From positions 1 to 48,397 of the IMG/VR virus record IMGVR_UViG_3300025653_000057: a DNA stretch of 48,397 nt. The stretch is one strand, 5' to 3'. Numbering within the stretch: the first letter of the stretch is position 1; each line of letters starts with the position of its first letter. Both the position numbers and the translations under genes were made by a program. The stretch comes from a virus. Its lineage: Duplodnaviria > Caudoviricetes. Below are positions 2,653 through 34,080 of the stretch, piece by piece. The notes beneath the pieces are model-generated. The model saw only the letters and a list, made by a program, of their open reading frames with translations, made no database searches and had not been told where the DNA came from.

Positions 2653-2726
2653 TGGAGCGGTCAGAGAGAATCGAACTCTCACACTCTCGTTGGCAACGAG
2701 ATAGGCTACCCTTACATCATGACCGC
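2653..2726 (-). tRNA. tRNA-Gly(GCC)
   Basis: Acceptor GCGGTCA/TGACCGC, anticodon arm TCTCG-TTGCCAA-CGAGA, T loop TTCGATT, encoded CCA; weak D stem. Confidence 0.9.
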
Positions 2727-2729
2727 ATA

Positions 2730-2805
2730 TGGTGCTGAAGGAGAGGCTCGAACTCCCGACCTGATGATTACAAATCAACTGCACTACCAACTGTGCTACT
2801 TCAGC
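2730..2805 (-). tRNA. tRNA-Thr(TGT)
   Basis: GCTGAAGTAGCACAGTTGGTAGTGCAGTTGATTTGTAATCATCAGGTCGGGAGTTCGAGCCTCTCCTTCAGCACCA. Confidence 0.95.
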
Positions 2806-2808
2806 AAA

Positions 2809-2884
2809 TGGCTCCCTGTGCTGGACTCGAACCAACGACATATGGATTAACAGTCCACTGTTCTACCAACTGAACTAACAGGGA
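2809..2884 (-). tRNA. tRNA-Asn(GTT)
   Basis: TCCCTGTTAGTTCAGTTGGTAGAACAGTGGACTGTTAATCCATATGTCGTTGGTTCGAGTCCAGCACAGGGAGCCA. Confidence 0.95.
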
Positions 2885-2890
2885 ATAATT

Positions 2891-2973
2891 TGGTGCGCCT
2901 AGAGAGACTCGAACTCCCACGCTTTCGCACTAGAACCTAAATCTAGCGTGTCTACCAATTTCACCATAGGCGC
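2891..2973 (-). tRNA. tRNA-Leu(TAG)
   Basis: GCGCCTATGGTGAAATTGGTAGACACGCTAGATTTAGGTTCTAGTGCGAAAGCGTGGGAGTTCGAGTCTCTCTAGGCGCACCA; long variable arm. Confidence 0.95.
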
Positions 2974-8649: not shown

Positions 8650-8909
8650 AACAAGTTACTCCATACTTTTAGTTTTTCATGCTTCTTTGCACCATACTCA
8701 TCCATTTTGGTATAGGAAACCAAATCCTCACCATGCATCAAATCAATGATACAGTACAAATCTCCTAATTCCTTATTCAAACTTTCAAGTGCATTTTCAC
8801 CTTGGTATTCTGAATCCTCACCAAATCTTTTAATCTTTGATGCGGCTACAATTACCTCTGCACACTCTTCCATCAGAATAGTTAGAAGTTCTTCTTTTCT
8901 AGTCATCAT
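8646..8909 (-). CDS. MazG-like nucleotide pyrophosphohydrolase
   Basis: LMEECAEVI ... LNKELGDL (ExxE...ExxD). Confidence 0.75.
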   Translation of the reverse strand: MMTRKEELLTILMEECAEVIVAASKIKRFGEDSEYQGENALESLNKELGDLYCIIDLMHGEDLVSYTKMDEYGAKKHEKLKVWSNLF

Positions 8910-9459
8910 ATAGTCCTTCAACCTTTTCCAAAGATACTGACATATTGAAACTAATAATTGTCTTCATTTCATCGCTTTGATTTTTTGCACTTCTGTGCAA
9001 GACCAGTGAAGGAAATATCACGACATCACCTTCTTTTACATCAATTGTCTCTATCTCATGTAATGAGTCTGGATTTCTTATCTGAAGTTTTGGCGCATCC
9101 TCAGGCAGGTCGAGATAGTAAACTCCAGTAAAGGAGCAGTTCAGATGAGTATGCCATCCATGCTCACTTCCCTTTTTATATTGCTGAAACCAGTAGTCAT
9201 GAATTTTGAAAAAGGTATAGCCCCAATCATTGTAAATTTCTTTTAGGTGATTAAACATATGCTTATCAATCATGTGAAAATATGGCTTAGTTAAATCACC
9301 AGCCCTTGCATAGTCACACCTATCAATATCAGTGTAACAATCTGGATAAACATATTCTTCAGCCCACGAATTAGAGATAGCATCCAGCAGTCTTTCCTTA
9401 TACTCAGTATGGTGAGCAAATTGTTTTATAGACATAGGGCATTTAATATATCGTGTCAT
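8899..9459 (-). CDS. 2OG-Fe(II) oxygenase-like protein
   Basis: WFQQY..HGWHTH..FTGVYYL..EGDVVIFPSLVLH..TIISFN. Confidence 0.85.
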   Translation of the reverse strand: MTRYIKCPMSIKQFAHHTEYKERLLDAISNSWAEEYVYPDCYTDIDRCDYARAGDLTKPYFHMIDKHMFNHLKEIYNDWGYTFFKIHDYWFQQYKKGSEHGWHTHLNCSFTGVYYLDLPEDAPKLQIRNPDSLHEIETIDVKEGDVVIFPSLVLHRSAKNQSDEMKTIISFNMSVSLEKVEGLYDD

Positions 9460-15174: not shown

Positions 15175-16125
15175 TTATTGTAGAGGAATTAGCCCCTGTT
15201 CTACCAAATAACCATCATCTCCAATTGCCTGCTCAGACATAAACGCATCGACAAAATCTTGAATGCCTGGAATGACACCAATATGCTCTTTCTTTACATA
15301 GAAGAATAGAGGCCGTGATACTGTATAAGAGCCGTCTGCAATAGTGTCAAAAGTAGGCTCTACACCATCAACGAATGATGCTTGAACTTTGTCAACATTC
15401 TGGTCGAGAAAAGAAAAACCAAACACACCAAATCTCTTTGGCTCACTGACAAGTTTCTCAATGATTAGATTATCATTCTCTCCCATTTGCACTACATGAA
15501 TATCTGTGCGAGTAGCAGTGCAGTGTGCTTTGTATTCTTTCTTACTCATTTTGAGTTCTTTTTTACAATAGTCATGCATAATGAGTTCTACAAAGGCATC
15601 TCTTGTTCCAGATGTTGTTGGTGGAATCATTACATCAATTCTATAATCTGGAAGTGATGGATTAATCTCATTCCACTTTGTATATGGATTGTCTACCCAT
15701 TCACCGTTGATTAAAACTTTTTCAGAGACAGCATTGAAGATATCACTTTTTGTGAAACTTACTTTCTCACCCTCTCTAGAATTTGAGAATGTAATACCAT
15801 CATAACCAATAAGGTATTCGATTGGTGTTACACCATTTGATTTACAGTCATCAATTTCTTTTTGTTTGATTGCTCTTGATGCGTTAGCAATGTCAGGCGT
15901 GACAGCACCAAGGCCTTTACAAAACATCTTTATACCGCCACCAGAACCAGTTGATTCAATGACTGGTGTTTTGAAACCTTGTTGTTGTCCGAATTTTTCT
16001 GCTACTGATGTTGCGAATGGAAAGACTGTAGATGAACCTACGACTGAAATTTGGTCACGGGCAAATGCTGTAGAAGTTATTGAAATTAAAAAAGCACTAA
16101 ATAGTACTACGAGCGATTTATGCAT
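15175..16125 (-). CDS. pstS: Phosphate ABC transporter substrate-binding protein
   Basis: Signal peptide; GSSTVFPF, STGSGGG, ANASRAIK, PPTTSGTRDAF, SRPLFFY. Confidence 0.93.
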   Translation of the reverse strand: MHKSLVVLFSAFLISITSTAFARDQISVVGSSTVFPFATSVAEKFGQQQGFKTPVIESTGSGGGIKMFCKGLGAVTPDIANASRAIKQKEIDDCKSNGVTPIEYLIGYDGITFSNSREGEKVSFTKSDIFNAVSEKVLINGEWVDNPYTKWNEINPSLPDYRIDVMIPPTTSGTRDAFVELIMHDYCKKELKMSKKEYKAHCTATRTDIHVVQMGENDNLIIEKLVSEPKRFGVFGFSFLDQNVDKVQASFVDGVEPTFDTIADGSYTVSRPLFFYVKKEHIGVIPGIQDFVDAFMSEQAIGDDGYLVEQGLIPLQ

Positions 16126-16190
16126 TAATCGTTCTCCTATGATTAGAAATAGAAAAGAGGCACCATTTCTCCCTTTGGTGTCTCTTTTCG

Positions 16191-16198
16191 TATTTATA
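16191..16198 (-). promoter_or_regulatory. Late promoter TATAAATA upstream of pstS
   Basis: Exact consensus. Confidence 0.7.
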
Positions 16199-16231
16199 GA
16201 TGTGAGTTTTTTTGCACTTTTGTGACAAAAA

Positions 16232-16747
16232 TTAATCAATCATCTCAAGTGCAAGTTCAGTAGTTTCAGTTACACGCCGTGTCCAACCTCTACCAAATGT
16301 ACCAAAGGTAGACAAACTTTCATAGTAACCTTGTCTCTTGTGTTGATACTCACCAATTGCCTCTTCAACAGTATGGCTTTCAAGATACTCAGCAAGTTTA
16401 CCTAGTGTGCCTGGGCCGATTGCACCATCTTGTCCAGCACCAACTAGTCCTTGTAGAAACTTTGCCGCTCTACCTGTTCCAGCATTAACACCGAAATCGA
16501 ACACACAAAGGTCAAGTCCAGCAGGCAAATCATCACCCTTTACTCTATCCCAATAGTTCTTCTTGTAGATAGGCTCGACATCTTCTACTGTCAAGTCTTG
16601 CATATCTTTTGTGCCACCCCATTCTTCATAAACTCTTTTGGTAACACCAAGATTAGTTTCACCGCCAGGGTCTTTTGGATGGTTTACATAACCACCTTCA
16701 TGATGAAGGATAGTTTCTAGACACTTTTCCCAATTTTGTTCAGCCAT
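16232..16747 (-). CDS. GH108 lysozyme with peptidoglycan-binding domain (endolysin)
   Basis: HEGGYVNHPKDPGGETNLGVT, FDFGVNAG, DGAIGPGT, FGRGWTRR. Confidence 0.92.
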   Translation of the reverse strand: MAEQNWEKCLETILHHEGGYVNHPKDPGGETNLGVTKRVYEEWGGTKDMQDLTVEDVEPIYKKNYWDRVKGDDLPAGLDLCVFDFGVNAGTGRAAKFLQGLVGAGQDGAIGPGTLGKLAEYLESHTVEEAIGEYQHKRQGYYESLSTFGTFGRGWTRRVTETTELALEMID

Positions 16748-17366
16748 TTCTTCTCCTATACCACTCTGCATATGTGGGGTCATTAATATCCATTTTAGTT
16801 TTGAACACCACAGAGGTTCTTAACTGATAACATTCTCTTGTCACAGGCATAGCCCTATGTGGTATCTTTGCTTTGAACAGAATAAGTCTGTTAAACTTGT
16901 ATGACGAATAATGAATACAGTCATCTTTCTCTTTGTTGTAAAAAGAAGTTCCACCTTCCCATTCAGCATCCCAACCCATACAAGGATAATAGAGAGCCGT
17001 TACATCACCGTCATCAGTATGTATGCTTCCATCCACTCCATATGTGTGTGAATTTGAATAATAGCGTGTCATATAATGTTTCACGCTGAAATGTTCTGTG
17101 ATTGCTTCTTCGACATAATACCAGAGATTTGAAATTTCATCTGGTAAAATACTCAAGTCTACTGATTCTGTATAAAGGTTTTGAACATCATTCCCTACAG
17201 AGCGATGCCAGTTCCACTTATCAACATTCTTATCTGATAGTCCTCTATTCCAACCAGCAATCCAACTCTTATCTTCAAAGAAAATATGATTGAATCTTTC
17301 TGCTTCCTCAACTGGCATTAAATCGTCAATGACTGCAATACCATCATCATTATAATATGTCAGCAT
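16740..17366 (-). CDS. 2OG-Fe(II) oxygenase
   Basis: IHTDDGD, WEGGT, NRLILF..IPH..RTSVVFK. Confidence 0.88.
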   Translation of the reverse strand: MLTYYNDDGIAVIDDLMPVEEAERFNHIFFEDKSWIAGWNRGLSDKNVDKWNWHRSVGNDVQNLYTESVDLSILPDEISNLWYYVEEAITEHFSVKHYMTRYYSNSHTYGVDGSIHTDDGDVTALYYPCMGWDAEWEGGTSFYNKEKDDCIHYSSYKFNRLILFKAKIPHRAMPVTRECYQLRTSVVFKTKMDINDPTYAEWYRRRNG

Positions 17367-17404: not shown

Positions 17405-17833
17405 TTATTTGATTTCAATTAACTTAGGCTTCTTCTCTTCTGGAATGATACGCTCAAGTTCGATTGTAAGCATTCCGTTTTTCAGTTCAGCACTCTTTAC
17501 TTCAATGTCATCTGCAAGTGTAAACTTACGATTAAACTTTTTGAAGGAAATACCTCTATGAATTAGTTCAGCACCATCACTGATATTTTCATAGGTTGAG
17601 CGAACTGTGATTTCACCTTGCTTATGCTCCACTTCTAAGTCCTCTTTTGAGAGGCCTGCAACCGCCAAGTCAATGAAGAACTCAGTCTCCGATTCCTTGC
17701 GAATGTTGTAGGGTGGGAAACCTGTTGACTGTGATTGATGCTCCGCATATTTCCACAAATTGTCGAATACACGGTCAAAGCCAACTGCATAAGGGGTGAG
17801 TCGATTAATATCGAAAGTAGTTAAATGTGTCAT
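17405..17833 (-). CDS. hsp20: Small heat shock protein (IbpA-like)
   Basis: GFPPYNI, LAVAG, HRGIS, AELKNGML, IIPEEKKPKLIEIK. Confidence 0.95.
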   Translation of the reverse strand: MTHLTTFDINRLTPYAVGFDRVFDNLWKYAEHQSQSTGFPPYNIRKESETEFFIDLAVAGLSKEDLEVEHKQGEITVRSTYENISDGAELIHRGISFKKFNRKFTLADDIEVKSAELKNGMLTIELERIIPEEKKPKLIEIK

Positions 17834-18744: not shown

Positions 18745-19129
18745 TACTCCCACCTTTTTCCAGTGTTTTTCTTATCTTTATTAATTGTTCTGAAGAAAGG
18801 ATAGAAAGGGCTTGTAATGCTTTAGAATCGTTGTAACCATAGTATTCTTTCACAACAGACAAATCGCCTTCATTATCTTTCTTCACCCATTTTGCAAACC
18901 TCTTTTTGGGTCTAACAGTATTTAGTAAATACTCGAACTGAAGGAGATTGTCTGTTTCCCAACGCTTATTCATCTCATTCGCAACACCAATTGTATCTAA
19001 ATGATAAGACAATGCACGATTAGTCATGTAAGAAGAATATGACTTCTCAGCGAGAGTGTCATTATCTGAACCTCGCATGAGATTCTTCTTACTAGTATTG
19101 ATAGCATTAATATAATCAAATGGATTCAT
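18734..19129 (-). CDS. gp62: Clamp loader small subunit
   Basis: PFDYINAIN, NRALS, ANEMN, KKRFAKW, VKEYYGYN. Confidence 0.92.
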   Translation of the reverse strand: MNPFDYINAINTSKKNLMRGSDNDTLAEKSYSSYMTNRALSYHLDTIGVANEMNKRWETDNLLQFEYLLNTVRPKKRFAKWVKKDNEGDLSVVKEYYGYNDSKALQALSILSSEQLIKIRKTLEKGGSNDG

Positions 19130-19884
19130 TCGTAAACTCTATTATATCTTAGATTTCCTGATATTGAAGTTCTTACTCCTTCACTCTTAAATGGATACAC
19201 TTGATGCTCCAGATAGTTTGGAAAGATAAACAATTCGCCCGTCTTTGGGGGAAATGACCTTTTGATAATACAGGCCAATGGATGAATGTTTGATGTTCCA
19301 TATCTAAACTCAATTGCGCCAGGTGCTACTCTTCTAGTGCTTTCATTATAACTGTTTTCTATCTCAGCGTCAAGTCCTTCAGGCACTTCTGTATAAAGAA
19401 CAAACGACATTTGGTCATCATGAGTGTGCAGAGGATTATAATCACCAGCAACCATATGATTTACCCACATAGTACTACACTCTAACGATTGACATATGTG
19501 ATTCACATTAAATTCTTCAGTTTCAGCCATAACCGAATGATTCAAAAATGCGTGTCTAGTATACGCATAGAAATATCTTGCAATTGTATTGAAAATATTA
19601 TATCTCGTTAAACCACTAAATCCAGTTTGTGTTTCTACTGCGCCCGCTAACTGATGAGCATAATTTGTTCCATCTTCATCTTTCTCGATTTGTTCCTTTA
19701 CAATATCAAGTTCTTCATCGGTGATTTGAAATTGACATAGTGGTGGACCCCAAGAATACCATTGATATGGAACAGTGTCATTGTTTTCCACATATTCAAT
19801 GACATTCTCTTCTTTCCACTTCTGCATTTCTTCAAGAGCCTTGGTCTCTTTTTCTTCATTCATTTGATTGATTATTGTTTCCAT
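19126..19884 (-). CDS. 2OG-Fe(II) oxygenase-like protein
   Basis: WVNHM..YNPLHTHD, GELFIFPNYLEHQVYPF..RTSISGN. Confidence 0.85.
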   Translation of the reverse strand: METIINQMNEEKETKALEEMQKWKEENVIEYVENNDTVPYQWYSWGPPLCQFQITDEELDIVKEQIEKDEDGTNYAHQLAGAVETQTGFSGLTRYNIFNTIARYFYAYTRHAFLNHSVMAETEEFNVNHICQSLECSTMWVNHMVAGDYNPLHTHDDQMSFVLYTEVPEGLDAEIENSYNESTRRVAPGAIEFRYGTSNIHPLACIIKRSFPPKTGELFIFPNYLEHQVYPFKSEGVRTSISGNLRYNRVYE

Positions 19885-20816
19885 TCTACTTCCACCATTA
19901 GTTCTGTCAGACACGCCATAAAGTTAATCTCTTGGTCAGCAACAAAAGCAGACTTATATTGGTAGTCGGCGAGTGTAACTACAGTCTGTGGTATGCTCTG
20001 AGGCTGAATGTATTCATTCATTCCATCATAAATTTTACGAAAAAGTGGCGCTACATCACCATCGACATTCTGTGCTACCCATTTACGAACAGCACTAAAC
20101 TCTTTGTTCTTTATTGCATCAATAAGAGTTTTAATATTTGTATCTGAAAGATTAGATAAAATACCAGAGTCAATAAAACCAGTAGCAGAATATCTCTGTA
20201 GTTCATTTAAGATTCTCCTATTATCTGGAAAGTGTTTCTTGATTACTTCAGCAACAACCTTTTGCTCATACTCCACCTGTTCTAGTAGAAGAATCTTCTG
20301 CACCATACCAAAAAACTCTTTAGCCATTTGAGGTTTGTCAGCATTGCTAATTTTGAAATCTACGACAGAACAACGACTTTGTAATGGTGCGATAATTTTA
20401 TTAACAAAGTTGCAAGTAAGAATAAAACCACAGTTGGCACTGTATTCTTCCATAAAGTTTCTCAGTGCTGGTTGCACAGAGTTTGGATTTAGATAGTCTG
20501 CTTCATCTAAGATAACATACTTTCGACCACCAGCAAGTGATACTGATGATGCAAAATTTCTCAGTTCATTTCTTAGAACATCAATAGAACGACCTTCATC
20601 GGAGCCATTGATTAAAATGTAATCACAGTCCAACTCTTCTAACATGGCTCTAGCAATAGTAGTCTTACCTACACCAGCAGAACCAGTTAGAAGAAGGTTT
20701 GGAATGTTTTTATTATCTACGAAAGTCTGAAAGGTTTCTTTCAGTGAGGGTGGCAGAACAGTATCCTTAACCATCTTTGGTCGATATTTCTCTACCCATA
20801 AAAATTGCTCACGCAT
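19872..20816 (-). CDS. gp44: Clamp loader large subunit
   Basis: LWVEKYRP, GSAGVGKTT, ILDEAD, LQSRC. Confidence 0.96.
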   Translation of the reverse strand: MREQFLWVEKYRPKMVKDTVLPPSLKETFQTFVDNKNIPNLLLTGSAGVGKTTIARAMLEELDCDYILINGSDEGRSIDVLRNELRNFASSVSLAGGRKYVILDEADYLNPNSVQPALRNFMEEYSANCGFILTCNFVNKIIAPLQSRCSVVDFKISNADKPQMAKEFFGMVQKILLLEQVEYEQKVVAEVIKKHFPDNRRILNELQRYSATGFIDSGILSNLSDTNIKTLIDAIKNKEFSAVRKWVAQNVDGDVAPLFRKIYDGMNEYIQPQSIPQTVVTLADYQYKSAFVADQEINFMACLTELMVEVEWKQ

Positions 20817-26636: not shown

Positions 26637-27332
26637 TTATTTTATTGCAATTGCTCCGACAAACATATGATTTCTCCAGAAGGGCTGTAGATTCGAGAAG
26701 CCTGCTTCTGTAATCATGTCTTGAATCTCAGCCCATGTATTAGGCTTTAGCATATGTCTAAGCGTTCTTTCTTTATCCATGATGTCTTCAGTGCTAAAGG
26801 TTTTACGCTTGAAGTCGTAATAGTTAAAGGTGAGCATATCCTGTAACTTTGGATTTTCACAGATAGTCTTCTCTGCAAAGATAAAAGCACCACCCCTGTT
26901 CAATCCTTCATAGATATTTTTGATTACTTTCTCTCTATCCCTATGTGGCATGAACTGTAAAGTAAAAATGGATGTGACGAGAGAACAATTGTAAAAGTCA
27001 AAATCACGAACATCTTCTTGCTCAAATCCAACAGTAGCCCATGGATATTTTTCAAATAAATCATGCTCACGCTTCTGCAAATCTTCGTAGAAACCCTCTG
27101 CAATCTCTACACCGATATAGTAAGCATCCTGAGAATGGTCTTGATTTTCTTCTAACATTCTCTGTGTCATCTTACCAGTAGAACACCCAATATCAACGAC
27201 TGTGGTATTGTCCTCAACAAAGTAACGAGACATGGCAACTACATCATCAAGCAAGTCTGAGTATCCACGAATAGATTTGTCGATGTGATTGTCAAATCCT
27301 TCCTCACGATGTGCAAATGTAAAATCAGCCAT
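26637..27332 (-). CDS. cmoA: CmoA-like carboxy-S-adenosylmethionine synthase
   Basis: FDNHIDKSIRGY, DIGCSTG, IFTLQFM, GGAFIFAEK and AGF..FW...F.GAIAIK parallel the CmoA motifs. Confidence 0.75.
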   Translation of the reverse strand: MADFTFAHREEGFDNHIDKSIRGYSDLLDDVVAMSRYFVEDNTTVVDIGCSTGKMTQRMLEENQDHSQDAYYIGVEIAEGFYEDLQKREHDLFEKYPWATVGFEQEDVRDFDFYNCSLVTSIFTLQFMPHRDREKVIKNIYEGLNRGGAFIFAEKTICENPKLQDMLTFNYYDFKRKTFSTEDIMDKERTLRHMLKPNTWAEIQDMITEAGFSNLQPFWRNHMFVGAIAIK

Positions 27333-28467
27333 TATACTTCTCCAATACCTTCTCATAGATTGAACCAGCAATCTCTTTCATCATCTTAGGGGCAACCATT
27401 CTACCAATGCGTTCTGCTTGTGCATCAAAGTCACCTGTCAAAATGTAATCATCTGGTAGCGCCATTGCTCTTTTCATTTCATTGATAGTCAGTTTGCGAT
27501 TTGCTTCATAATGTATGATGCCTGACATACCCTTCTTTTGTCCAGTCTGAGTTAGTGTAGGACAAGGCAAATCTGGACTGCAACGAATCATATTGAAACA
27601 TGAACCCTTTGGATTGGTTTCTTTGAACATGGGATTAGATGCTTTGAGATACCTGTTGGGTCTGAAAGGAATAGGTTCAACAAATTTCCATTGCCAAGAA
27701 TCTTTGAGATAGTCCTCAAGCATCTTTGCTTGCTCTTCATCATTCTCTAATCCTTGTAGCGCATCCTCAAATCGAATACGCTCACTAAATGGTTCTGGAA
27801 AAATACCATGAATGTTGAGAAAGGTCAAACCAACCTTAGAGCATACATCATCACGAATACCAATAAAGATTGTTCTTTCTCTATGCTGTGGAACTCCATA
27901 ATCAGCGGCGGACATTACCTTATAAGACATATTGTAACCAATGCTTTCAAATGCATTGACAAATTGTCGCAACTTTGGTTTAGCAAAGTCCATTGTGATT
28001 CCCTTGACATTCTCAGCAACAATTACCTTTGGTTTGATAACCTCTGCTACACGAATGAACTCAAGAAACAAATCTTCGATGTTCTCTACCTTTTTACCAT
28101 CTGAGTAATTTTTAGTCTTGTTCCATCCCTCTTGATTACGAGACACCATAGAAGAAACAGAGTAAGCAGAACAAGGAGGCGAGCCATCTAGAATGTCTAA
28201 CTCACCTTCCTTTAGTCCTGTCTTATCAAGAAAGTCTTGTCCACTATACTTTTTGATATCATCCACCAGAACTGGTGTATCAGGAAAGTTAGCAGTATAG
28301 GTTTCGACTGCGGCTTCAACAAACTCATTGATAAGTCGAATGTCTCCACCAGCAAGTCGATAACCTGTGGAAGAGCCTCCACCACCAGCGAATAAACTGA
28401 TGACAGAGAACTTCTTCTGTGCAGATGCTTTCTTTACATCTTCTAATGTGTAGGGCGTATACTTCAC
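27325..28467 (-). CDS. DNA cytosine-C5 methyltransferase-family protein (possible carboxymethyltransferase)
   Basis: FAGGGG (I), GSPPC (IV), ENV (VI), PQHRER (VIII), RKLTINE (IX), IGRMV (X variant). Confidence 0.9.
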   Translation of the reverse strand: MKYTPYTLEDVKKASAQKKFSVISLFAGGGGSSTGYRLAGGDIRLINEFVEAAVETYTANFPDTPVLVDDIKKYSGQDFLDKTGLKEGELDILDGSPPCSAYSVSSMVSRNQEGWNKTKNYSDGKKVENIEDLFLEFIRVAEVIKPKVIVAENVKGITMDFAKPKLRQFVNAFESIGYNMSYKVMSAADYGVPQHRERTIFIGIRDDVCSKVGLTFLNIHGIFPEPFSERIRFEDALQGLENDEEQAKMLEDYLKDSWQWKFVEPIPFRPNRYLKASNPMFKETNPKGSCFNMIRCSPDLPCPTLTQTGQKKGMSGIIHYEANRKLTINEMKRAMALPDDYILTGDFDAQAERIGRMVAPKMMKEIAGSIYEKVLEKYNG

Positions 28468-29252
28468 TTCAATCCCATTTTCGCTCTAATAGCAGTTGCA
28501 GAAATATTCTCTACCTTTTCATCAAAGTGTTCTTGCTCAATAGCATATCCCACCTTGCGTCCATAGGTGATGTTTACAATATTCGGAACGAGCATAATAA
28601 CATATTCCTTACCATGTGTAAAGCCCTTTTCGCTCAAACCTTTGATAATATTTCGCTTTACTTGTTCAAAGTCAAATGGATTGCTGTTATCCCATCCTTG
28701 CACATCACGCACTTGAATACAGACCTGTCCAGTCTTTGCTAGACACCGCTTAAATAGTTCTGTGTGTCCATCGTGCCATGGTTGCCATCTACCCAACATC
28801 TGCACCGTTTCTTTTCTCCAGTCAAACGGCTGTAAATCCTTTGATACCAAATCAGATTGTGCATCCGAATCAAACTTATCAAAGTGATAATCTGTCGTTA
28901 CTGTTCCCATTTCATTTACAGGATAGTCAAACATCTTGTTTGTATCCTCATAACGACCCTCTTCAATAGTATCCATGAATACAGAAACATCAGGCATGAC
29001 GATATGACGATACTCTGTCTTTGGACATACAAAATCAAGAATAGCCCATTGCTTATCAGACTCAGCACCAAGCACTCTCATTCTTTCTGCTTGACGCATA
29101 CGACCCTCTTCACTAAAATCCCAATCGTCAAATCGCTTGCGAACTTCATCAGCATTGAAATGGTCACAGTCACCAAGTTTCTGTCGCAACTTATTTGCAA
29201 ATGTTGTTTTACCAGAGCCGGGCAGGCCCATGACAAGAATTGTTTTAGCCAT
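28464..29252 (-). CDS. APS-kinase-like P-loop domain fused to an HxGH nucleotidyltransferase
   Basis: GLPGSGKTT, NADEVR, DFVCP; GRWQPWHDGH, ISATAIR. Confidence 0.85.
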   Translation of the reverse strand: MAKTILVMGLPGSGKTTFANKLRQKLGDCDHFNADEVRKRFDDWDFSEEGRMRQAERMRVLGAESDKQWAILDFVCPKTEYRHIVMPDVSVFMDTIEEGRYEDTNKMFDYPVNEMGTVTTDYHFDKFDSDAQSDLVSKDLQPFDWRKETVQMLGRWQPWHDGHTELFKRCLAKTGQVCIQVRDVQGWDNSNPFDFEQVKRNIIKGLSEKGFTHGKEYVIMLVPNIVNITYGRKVGYAIEQEHFDEKVENISATAIRAKMGLK

Positions 29253-29427: not shown

Positions 29428-29770
29428 CTCCCATGTATCCTACGCTCTCACGCTTAATATCGTTATGATTAAATTCAGCCCAGTATAGTTCATATGCGAT
29501 TGCATCTTCCAAACACTCAAATTGATGATACACGCCAGGCTTTACTTTTGTAAAATCGCCTGGGCCGAGAATAGTTTCATCAACCAAGTCATAGTCTTTT
29601 TGCCATACACGAATGAGAAGTTTACCAGATTCTACAAAGAAACCATTCCACTTATATTCATGCAAATGCTTTGAGCAGACGCCGCCTGCATCTGTTTCAA
29701 TCCTATGAAACTCCAGAACTCCATTTGCTTCGATAAGTTCTGTAGTTCCCCACACTTTACCAGCAATCAT
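29405..29770 (-). CDS. Cupin-domain protein
   Basis: KVWG, CSKHLH, FFVESG, PGVYHQF. Confidence 0.8.
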   Translation of the reverse strand: MIAGKVWGTTELIEANGVLEFHRIETDAGGVCSKHLHEYKWNGFFVESGKLLIRVWQKDYDLVDETILGPGDFTKVKPGVYHQFECLEDAIAYELYWAEFNHNDIKRESVGYMGDEYELHR

Positions 29771-30294
29771 GCTACCATCCTATGCTTTTTCCTTAGTTTA
29801 TCAAGTTTTGCTTTCTGTTTTTTCGCTTGCTCAAGGTGATACCTATTTGCTCTCGTTGTATACAGAATGCCGTTACAATGGTCGAGTTCATGCTGAAAAA
29901 TTCTAGCAGTCATTCCACCAAACTTTATTGTGTCAGTTACACCCTCTTGTGTGGTGTATCTTACACGAATCCAATCATATCTTTTTACTTTAACATAAAG
30001 GCCTGGGAATGTCAAGCATCCTTCTTCCTCTAGTGTTGTTTCTTTGGATGAGTCAACAATTTTTGGATTAAAAACTCCAGCAATATTGTCAGGGTCAGTA
30101 GGACTTCCCATCACAAAAACTCTCAATGGAATACCACACTGAATAGCAGACAACCCTACACCATTGTTTTCAATCATTGTCTCTTTTAGATTTTCAAATA
30201 ACTCATTAGCGTCCATCTGTGGATTTTGAAAATCGAAAGGTTCACTATGAACTCTCAATCTCTCATCCATACTTCCAATCAAATCAAGTTTCAT
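29767..30294 (-). CDS. def: Peptide deformylase
   Basis: GVGLSAIQ, EGCLT, QHELDH. Confidence 0.93.
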   Translation of the reverse strand: MKLDLIGSMDERLRVHSEPFDFQNPQMDANELFENLKETMIENNGVGLSAIQCGIPLRVFVMGSPTDPDNIAGVFNPKIVDSSKETTLEEEGCLTFPGLYVKVKRYDWIRVRYTTQEGVTDTIKFGGMTARIFQHELDHCNGILYTTRANRYHLEQAKKQKAKLDKLRKKHRMVA

Positions 30295-30824
30295 TCTGTT
30301 CTCCCATAAAATTCTGTTCTGTATGCTTTGAGTGATGAAAAATAATACCAACAACAATTGTCTTTACCAGTAGAGTTGCTGTCTGGTATCCATTTTACTC
30401 TACCAATACTTACAATTTTACTGACATATGGTAGATAAGGTATTGCTTGTTTTGTATGCATCCAATCAGCATCAAAGAGTAACCACGCACCTTTACCAAC
30501 TTCTCTGAATCTTTCAATCATCGGATGAAGTATCTTTCGATTCCAAGGTGGATTGGTAATTATCTTATGACCCTTCTGATATGCAAAGTATCCAAGTTCC
30601 TCAAAGTCTGCTTTCCTAATATCATCTCTCTGAGGTTCGATATCACTAGCAAACACACACTCATGTCCATATTTGCATAGTATATCTATGAGTTTTCCAT
30701 CGCCAGCACAAGGCTCTACAAAAGGACAGTTTGGTGGCAAATGCGGTAAAAGGGGTAGAACAGCCGCTTCTGGTGTTGGATAGAAGTCTCGTTCTACTCT
30801 TTCAAAATCACTTCGTTTACCCAT
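30291..30824 (-). CDS. Minimal amino-DNA methyltransferase (N6-adenine type)
   Basis: DFYPTP, EPCAGDG, ITNPPW. Confidence 0.85.
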   Translation of the reverse strand: MGKRSDFERVERDFYPTPEAAVLPLLPHLPPNCPFVEPCAGDGKLIDILCKYGHECVFASDIEPQRDDIRKADFEELGYFAYQKGHKIITNPPWNRKILHPMIERFREVGKGAWLLFDADWMHTKQAIPYLPYVSKIVSIGRVKWIPDSNSTGKDNCCWYYFSSLKAYRTEFYGRTE

Positions 30825-33018: not shown

Positions 33019-34080
33019 CTACACTTCCATATACAGTGCTTCATTATAAAGACTTCGCATCAGATTGTCAAGTCTTTTCTTCGACACATTTGTCTCCATG
33101 TTCTCAATATACTTAGAGAGAATGGTGACGGTATCTTCTGCTTCATTGACAATATCCGAATCATCTTCCAAGTTCAAATTGAGATGGTCATCAACAATCT
33201 GGATGTTTACAGGATTCGCTTGATACAACTTATCCATAAACTGGTCGAACCAATACGGATTTTCTTTGTTCTGTGTTACAACCTTGACATACGAACCTTC
33301 AAAACCAGAAAAGTCTTTTTCCAAAATATCAGACGCTTCCTTACCAGAGTCATCATAGAAGACTTTATTGAACATACGATACGGATTACGAACAAACTCC
33401 AGTTCTCTTGTATCCGTATCAAAGATATGAAACCCTTTAGGGTCTTGATAGTCTGACCATGTAAGTTCATATGGACAACCAAGATAGTGGATATTCTTAG
33501 TTACTGACTTAGTATGGAAATGTCCAGATGCAACTAAGTCAAACTTACTGAAGTCTCCTACATCCATACCATGTTCATTGATTTGTCCACGCATCATCAG
33601 ACAACCAGCAATCTCCAAGTGTCCAAATAGAATCTGCGCTGGTGTATCCTTCATATGCTGAATTGCTTGTGCATAGTTGGAGTTGTTAATCCAAGGCATC
33701 AAGCAGATAGGAGTGTCTCCAAAATTTACAGTAGTTGCTTCCGAATAATACGAAACATCATGCTTGTCAAACAGTTCTTGCATTGAGTTAATTTCATTGG
33801 TGTTCTTGTATGGAACATCATGATTACCAATGATGACATGAAGGTCAATACCCTTATCTGTAACTTTGTTTAGGAAAGTATCTTTGAGATGACGGAGAGT
33901 AACAAAATTGATATACTTGCGCCTATCCACGATATCTCCCAAATGGATGATTGTGTCAATCCTGTTGTCTTCCAAATAGGGAAAGAAAATATTATCATAA
34001 AACTTAGCCATGTAGTCAAGAAAATGATGAGCATCGTTTCTTACTCCCCAATGTGTATCTGTAACCAGTGCGATTTTCAT
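33019..34080 (-). CDS. gp47: Recombination endonuclease subunit (Mre11/SbcD-like)
   Basis: TDTHWG, LGDIVD, GNHD, SGHFH. Confidence 0.96.
   Translation of the reverse strand: MKIALVTDTHWGVRNDAHHFLDYMAKFYDNIFFPYLEDNRIDTIIHLGDIVDRRKYINFVTLRHLKDTFLNKVTDKGIDLHVIIGNHDVPYKNTNEINSMQELFDKHDVSYYSEATTVNFGDTPICLMPWINNSNYAQAIQHMKDTPAQILFGHLEIAGCLMMRGQINEHGMDVGDFSKFDLVASGHFHTKSVTKNIHYLGCPYELTWSDYQDPKGFHIFDTDTRELEFVRNPYRMFNKVFYDDSGKEASDILEKDFSGFEGSYVKVVTQNKENPYWFDQFMDKLYQANPVNIQIVDDHLNLNLEDDSDIVNEAEDTVTILSKYIENMETNVSKKRLDNLMRSLYNEALYMEV

Follow-up and report, generated by a model that had tools for sequence, protein, structure and literature searches.

A CmoX and CmoA gene pair predicted to carboxymethylate cytosine in the DNA of a T4-like phage

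The cmoX-cmoA locus

On the minus strand of a 48.4-kb linear virus fragment (48,397 nucleotides, analysed at full length and called the window here) lie two overlapping genes. cmoX (27325..28467, GTG start) encodes a 380-residue homologue of the DNA cytosine-C5 carboxymethyltransferases, of what is termed below the 'Q' recognition-loop clade, and cmoA (26637..27332), read from the ATG of MADFT, encodes a 231-residue homologue of carboxy-SAM (Cx-SAM) synthases. The stop of the former and the start of the latter share 8 nt (27325..27332), as an earlier note made from the letters of this DNA had described and as the open reading frames (28467-27325 and 27332-26637) bear out; the overlap likely serves translational coupling. 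By completeness estimate the window is 27% of a T4-like phage genome; in sequence comparison its polymerase is ~52% identical to those of Kyanoviridae cyanophages, and for the capsid protein the identity to that of Pelagibacter phage Mosig is 67%. Extension of the genome through its terminase and VWA genes led only to short, near-identical contigs. A perfect -35/-10 site upstream of gp46 (TTGACA-17-TATAAT, 12 of 12 positions matching; 33043..33071, minus strand) likely drives an early transcript from 33071-33043 through the cmoX-cmoA slot; the total of 37 sites in the sigma-70 scan equals the shuffled mean, and only perfect sites are notable.

The same run contains, five genes further upstream, a small DNA methyltransferase gene (177 aa, phrog_799, NPPW motif; 30291-30824, minus strand), and elsewhere are tRNA genes for Gly, Thr, Asn and Leu (2653-2973, minus strand). 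Genes for a phosphate-binding protein (15175-16239), a GH108 lysozyme (16232-16783), a small heat-shock-like protein (17405-17833), a peptide deformylase (29767-30357) and four 2OG-Fe(II) oxygenases (2069-2641, 8899-9459, 16740-17366 and 19126-19914) are of kinds usual in marine T4-like phages. Four 4-base palindromes are at zero in the window, namely ACGT (77 expected), GATC (222), AGCT (156) and CGCG (42), and two more are scarce, CCGG with 5 (26 expected) and GTAC with 35 (147 expected). The avoided set differs among relatives, one sister-phage contig (G001) keeping GATC while having few AATT, a pattern suggesting that phages of a single lineage meet different restriction systems in their hosts.

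The cmoX product matches Pfam PF00145 (E 2.6e-51) and is identical at 201 of 366 aligned residues (55%) to SpCmoX, the carboxymethyltransferase of the CmoA-CmoX-CmoY system of Synechococcus phage S-B43 (Yang et al., Nat Commun 2025;17:281, PMC12783734; PDB 8YF3). In a sequence search 8YF3 is its top structure match by a wide interval (E 2e-116, the next structure at 1e-20) and it is also the top fold match for the protein's model, which is of low confidence and poor over residues 237-357. Motif IV reads SPPC and includes the catalytic C99 (residues 96-99; 28171..28182, minus strand, from the ORF translation and alignment), the ENV (152-154) and QHRER (194-198) motifs are preserved, and motif X reads IGRMV, with an Asn-to-Arg replacement at R356 (codon AGA, 27400..27402, minus strand) which aligns with SpCmoX R350 and with an Asn in HaeIII; the earlier note's reading of all these motifs stands. 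SPPC together with an Arg at the R350 position are the two features by which CmoX is recognised in PMC12783734, and the window enzyme has both. More broadly, F26, E48, F49, D70, C99 and R356 correspond in the alignment to SpCmoX F25, E47, F48, D69, C98 and R350, so that all four Cx-SAM contacts F25, E47, F48 and D69 are kept. The gene is under purifying selection (dN/dS 0.06 against a sister phage). Two points count against the assignment: after the catalytic Cys the window lineage departs from other Q enzymes, its catalytic loop, SAYSVSSM, being present in one of the 120 best homologues (SAFSVAGK is in 100 of them), and in a quick tree it is on a long branch.

For cmoA, 140 of 230 residues (61%) are identical to SpCmoA, a match to the E. 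coli CmoA structure 4GEK has an E of 1e-25, and the protein model (pLDDT 85) has 4GEK as its best fold match (TM 0.87). Both orthology to SpCmoA and the CmoA fold are thus found, and this gene too is under purifying selection (dN/dS 0.11 against the sister phage).

The association of the two genes extends well beyond the window. The earlier note had expected a basic residue in motif X to track cmoA across methyltransferases, and had taken Gly-Arg at this place in enzymes lacking a cmoA neighbour, if common, as an argument to the contrary. A CmoA profile gave 523 confirmed viral loci; in the best 80 of these a C5-methyltransferase is present in 75, all 75 with Arg at the R356 column, and three of the five loci without one begin at a contig edge. 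Picking by methyltransferase instead, cmoA is present in 69 of the best 80 of 540 loci, and in 32 of the 34 whose flanks each extend to 3 kb or more. The control was a sister family, that of Methylophilales phage Melnitz, whose methyltransferase is 40% identical to the window CmoX: among the best 80 of 178 such loci, 79 have Leu at this column, none has cmoA and 64 have a TET-like neighbour. The expected tracking is therefore evident among the best-ranked loci, and the cmoA-less family has Leu where Gly-Arg would have been adverse, though the locus sets hold many near-copies, so that loci are non-independent as lineages, and the control is a single family. In Melnitz itself (L252:4001-6185) the Leu-type gene adjoins a Tet_JBP gene.

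Outside the marine T4-like group, Arg-type methyltransferases are present in Moraxella phage Mcat8 (L253:3959-5666), where the gene overlaps a small methyltransferase gene with a weak CmoA-profile match (42 bits), and, in a long form, in Erwinia jumbo phages (L254), with cmoA ~17 kb away in pEa_SNUABM_30. In two further loci (L005:9147-11224 and L006) cmoY and cmoX are adjacent with no cmoA within 9 kb, and there CmoX may rely on a host or distant CmoA.

From this comparison of sequences, the window's cmoX and cmoA are very probably orthologues of the S-B43 genes, and their products would carboxymethylate cytosines of the phage DNA. Which cytosines these may be, and in what final form, is considered before the chemistry itself.

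Recognition loops and target motif

SpCmoX writes 5-carboxymethylcytosine (5cxmC) at GC, and the specificities of other CmoX enzymes are stated as undetermined in the same paper (PMC12783734). Two loops of the window enzyme, CFNMIR...PTLTQTGQKKGMSG (27520..27603, minus strand), differ in alignment from the CFNTKR...PTLTASGG of SpCmoX. By analogy with C5-methyltransferases in general, these loops are presumably the DNA readers. Sorting of 193 CmoX-like ORFs (Arg occupies the R356 column in 189, three are truncated and one has Leu) gave loop types named here S (SpCmoX), M, T, R and, for the window, Q. In a quick, midpoint-rooted tree of 76 rows, from which the long Erwinia protein, ORFs below 330 aa and most duplicates at 90% were left out, 30 rows form a Q clade (SH-aLRT 95) and 41, SpCmoX among them, an S+M+T clade (98).

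In 23 loci two cmoX genes are side by side: Q+R in 11, Q+S in six, T+S in three, Q+M in two and one with a truncated partner, a single Q having been assigned manually on a fragment of 72 aa. Like is never paired with like in these loci, which represent a handful of lineages, and the tandem paralogues of unlike loop type are 49-70% identical (L113-L122, L134, L148-L165, L112/L116/L117). Unlike loop types in adjacent genes are most easily explained by the reading of different motifs. On these comparisons of loop sequences, a target other than plain GC is, by a small degree, the expected one for the window CmoX.

The contrary position, that the window enzyme modifies GC just as SpCmoX does and that the loop differences leave the motif unchanged, is only somewhat improbable. 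It is favoured by the 55% identity to a GC enzyme and by the preference for GpC of most TET-linked phage C5-methyltransferases, related enzymes (10.1101/2023.12.21.572611), which keeps GC in play for the window CmoX; set against it are the loops, both of which differ and define a separate clade, and the consistently unlike tandem pairs. Base composition is non-diagnostic, and to that extent leaves a GC motif its place. Early odds ratios and a codon-controlled test gave GC depletion in S-B43 and CC depletion in Q-type phages, and at synonymous sites eight Q-type phages are little depleted in GC compared with four S/M phages (medians -0.16 and -1.10), a weak point against GC. The test did not withstand stricter controls: ten complete T4-like phages without PF00145 have a median of -0.92 as against -1.47 for S-B43, and the S/M types do not separate from these ten methyltransferase-free controls (p 0.26). 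CC fares similarly. Its depletion in the eight Q phages against the ten controls has p 0.043 (0.016 with palindromes masked), but the window's own value, -0.87, is inside the control range, the methyltransferase-free DLP6 reaches -1.66, and a relative carrying a TET-associated glycosyltransferase (TAGT) gene, with no cmoX in its contig, is at -1.16. Naming the motif from synonymous-site composition was accordingly abandoned, methyltransferase-free phages being GC-poor as well and the window CC value being within the control range; CC is a weak lead as a target.

End product and the exchangeable slot

In S-B43, CmoY ligates glycine to the carboxymethyl group, and the virion DNA contains the glycine amide only, with no free 5cxmC (PMC12783734). 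A comparable ligase was not seen in the window, where the best tblastn match to SpCmoY has an E of 0.22 and PF00733 has no match. The CmoY query likewise gave no match in the sister phage, whose CmoX is 95% identical to that of the window and whose two contigs (G001 and G022, which agree at 99.98% of 12,003 bases) together cover ~87 kb, nor in the 80%-complete G006 or the complete genome of Synechococcus phage S-CRM01, the last two of which have both cmoA and cmoX; the positive control, S-B43, was matched at E 1e-72, and G009 was matched also. With CmoY not seen, free 5-carboxymethylcytosine is put forward, with modest confidence, as the end product, an amide formed by a ligase encoded elsewhere being less likely.

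A full three-enzyme pathway in which the third gene is displaced, so that a ligase encoded outside the window joins glycine or another amine to the mark, is less probable. In its favour, the window leaves about 73% of the genome unseen, cmoY is 2-3 kb from cmoA in several other loci, and S-B43 itself ends with the amide alone. Moreover, with flanks of 3 kb fetched, cmoY is present in 27 of 38 deduplicated loci and in 14 of the 16 that have a single Q-type cmoX, the window's own loop type. The counter-evidence is that neither the 48-kb window nor ~87 kb of the sister phage contains a ligase, that cmoX and cmoA fill their slot alone, and that cultured S-CRM01 (L002, HQ615693 115080-116917), with a cmoA-cmoX pair, gave no match to an amide ligase across its complete genome. 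In the sister phage (L004:11942-14817), cmoA is followed by two ORFs of 360 and 288 aa with no Pfam or PHROG match and then by a Dam-like methyltransferase gene (phrog_56).

The slot itself has a sharply defined left edge, the GTGA by which cmoX overlaps the stop of the upstream kinase-nucleotidyltransferase gene (28464..28467, minus strand). Three close relatives (L328, L329 and L330) have the same neighbours, L328 being 97% identical to the window in gp46 and 95% in the kinase gene, and start a gene for a 512-aa TET-associated glycosyltransferase (PF20691, E 3e-42) at that very base (L328:4786-6324, L329:4786-6324, L330:4100-5638), with a small HNH-like gene after it. PF20691 has matches in these three relatives and none in the window or G001; reciprocally, no cmoX is present in the relatives' short contigs, and the searched fragments of these TAGT carriers contain no TET/JBP gene. 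The pair is proposed to be an accessory cassette, replaced in relatives by a DNA glycosyltransferase gene, and the presence of the latter at the same junction points to switches of modification chemistry among closely related phages. The kinase-nucleotidyltransferase (28464-29252) was considered as a stand-in for CmoY and rejected: only one of 80 of its loci has cmoX, that one being an identical contig, and it is absent from the corresponding place in the cmoX-bearing sister phage, which places it outside the system.

Joined together, these points outline a ligase-free branch of CmoX that leaves free 5-carboxymethylcytosine at a non-GC motif and whose cassette alternates in this phage lineage with TET-type glycosylation, another DNA armour, at an exact junction, a composite that is tentative and, taken whole, rather doubtful. 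No paper on a non-GC or a ligase-free CmoX was found in a mainly non-subscription literature. The possible ligase-free end product, the other motif and the cassette swap are leads beyond PMC12783734, and it is on them that the interest of the locus depends, for the carboxymethylation pair as such is a further example of a published family, of which a census already in print counts 5,615 CmoX, 4,257 CmoA and 2,251 ligases (PMC12783734), so that the core claim matters little. A second natural CmoX specificity, if true, would be a useful reagent, carboxymethyltransferases already serving sequencing methods (PMC12015181, PMC13288465). Virion DNA is not yet known to end with free 5-carboxymethylcytosine; a phage without the ligase would reveal whether an unamidated carboxylate can be tolerated and gives protection, and the cultured S-CRM01 allows a direct test.

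Cofactor supply, chemistry and known systems

In E. coli CmoA, Arg199 binds the carboxylate (PMC3663124), and the earlier note had pointed out, as a doubt, that the Arg of E. coli QKR falls on KER in the window protein. As an alignment that is right, Arg199 aligning to E188 (DKER), with E. coli E203 aligning in turn to R192, a reciprocal swap of the E. coli R199...E203 pair (E188...R192 at 26757..26771, minus strand). As a doubt it does not hold, for SpCmoA, which has been assayed, shares this pattern (DKEKELR, Glu at the Arg199 column) and makes Cx-SAM with a kcat of 2.33 per s compared with 0.23 for E. coli CmoA (PMC12783734); with an active enzyme carrying the same Glu, E188 is no argument against activity. 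Each of the two residues, E188 and R192, recurs in 156 of the 158 CmoA ORFs compared from phages, duplicates included, the other two having gaps. R192, one helical turn away, likely stands in for E. coli R199 as the carboxylate binder, to judge from the aligned residues. By the equivalog model for bacterial CmoA (TIGR00740, E 3.1e-32) the window protein scores 112 bits against a curated cut-off of 193, below the NCBIfam cut-offs, and has Glu in place of Arg199. The Glu being shared with SpCmoA, the low score lessens the case for a 'bacterial equivalog' and not that for a protein that works like CmoA.

Two readings that would deny the pair its joint function are both highly improbable. That the methyltransferase is an ordinary SAM-using writer of 5mC, with cmoA serving tRNA modification or a SAM drain, has on its side the database name of DNA cytosine methylase and the four tRNA genes of the window, and is opposed by the acceptance of Cx-SAM only by wild-type SpCmoX (PMC12783734), by the co-occurrence of the Arg with cmoA and by the lack of a cmoB in the window. 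That the phage CmoA, without Arg199, is inactive and CmoX depends on host Cx-SAM would agree with the Glu at that column, with the ability of E. coli CmoA to feed SpCmoX (PMC12783734) and with the cmoX-cmoY loci L005 and L006 that lack cmoA nearby, but is countered by the tenfold greater speed of SpCmoA with the same Glu (DKEK), by the retention of E188 and R192 and by the dN/dS of cmoA.

The orthologous pair would then act as follows. CmoA would convert host SAM and prephenate to carboxy-SAM, with R192 likely acting as does E. coli R199, on the precedent of SpCmoA; in CmoX, by analogy with SpCmoX, C99 would attack cytosine C6, the carboxymethyl group would pass to C5, and R356 would hold the carboxylate. 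Modification of this phage's cytosines would most likely be post-replicative, free 5-carboxymethylcytosine would, with no CmoY, be likelier than an amide from a distant ligase, and the mark would likely block host nucleases at overlapping sites, an effect that for SpCmoX has been demonstrated against HhaI in vitro only (PMC12783734).

The closest known system is that of S-B43. The earlier note had proposed that a phage makes its own Cx-SAM and that an Arg-bearing C5-methyltransferase uses it to write 5-carboxymethylcytosine, with the Arg on the carboxylate; it had also surmised that similar natural pairs might already be published, and PMC12783734 indeed establishes this chemistry for the 55% and 61% identical orthologues through LC-MS, a test in cmoA-null E. 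coli, the mutant R350N and a crystal structure, in which R350, replacing HhaI N304, contacts the carboxylate. That mutant also corrects the note's suggestion of an R-to-N revertant as control: SpCmoX R350N is inactive with both SAM and Cx-SAM, and such a revertant would be null and write no 5mC. The window is like S-B43 in its adjacent cmoA and cmoX, absence of cmoB, SPPC, motif X Arg and retained cofactor-binding residues. It differs in the order cmoX-cmoA, in having no cmoY between or nearby, in the separate recognition-loop clade of its CmoX and in having no match to PF02195 within the window, unlike the S-B43 system with its ParB partner. Synechococcus phage S-CRM01, which the main text of PMC12783734 does not mention, similarly has overlapping cmoA and cmoX genes (g149/g148, HQ615693; 62% and 52% identical), with the gene order opposite to that of the window and a CmoX in the SpCmoX clade.

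An engineered precedent is M.MpeI N374K, where a basic residue in place of the motif X Asn allows use of Cx-SAM (PMC12783734); that enzyme is CG-specific and has Lys, whereas the window CmoX is natural and has Arg. With the E. coli CmoA/CmoB pathway to tRNA cmo5U (4GEK; PMC3663124) the window shares the CmoA fold (TM 0.87) and most cofactor contacts, but its predicted acceptor is DNA cytosine and not tRNA ho5U, and R199/E203 become E188/R192. The earlier note's report of no CmoB-like enzyme is upheld for the window, where PF08003 has no match in this 27% of the genome, the same search having matched 12 of 14 control genomes. Lastly, the phage clusters of C5-methyltransferase, TET and glycosyltransferase genes (10.1101/2023.12.21.572611; PMC8256090) likewise provide for post-replicative modification at cytosine C5 by a related methyltransferase. 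PF12851, for TET/JBP, has no match in the window, the same search matching Melnitz; where those clusters write 5mC and then oxidise and glycosylate it, the window combines a motif X Arg with cmoA.
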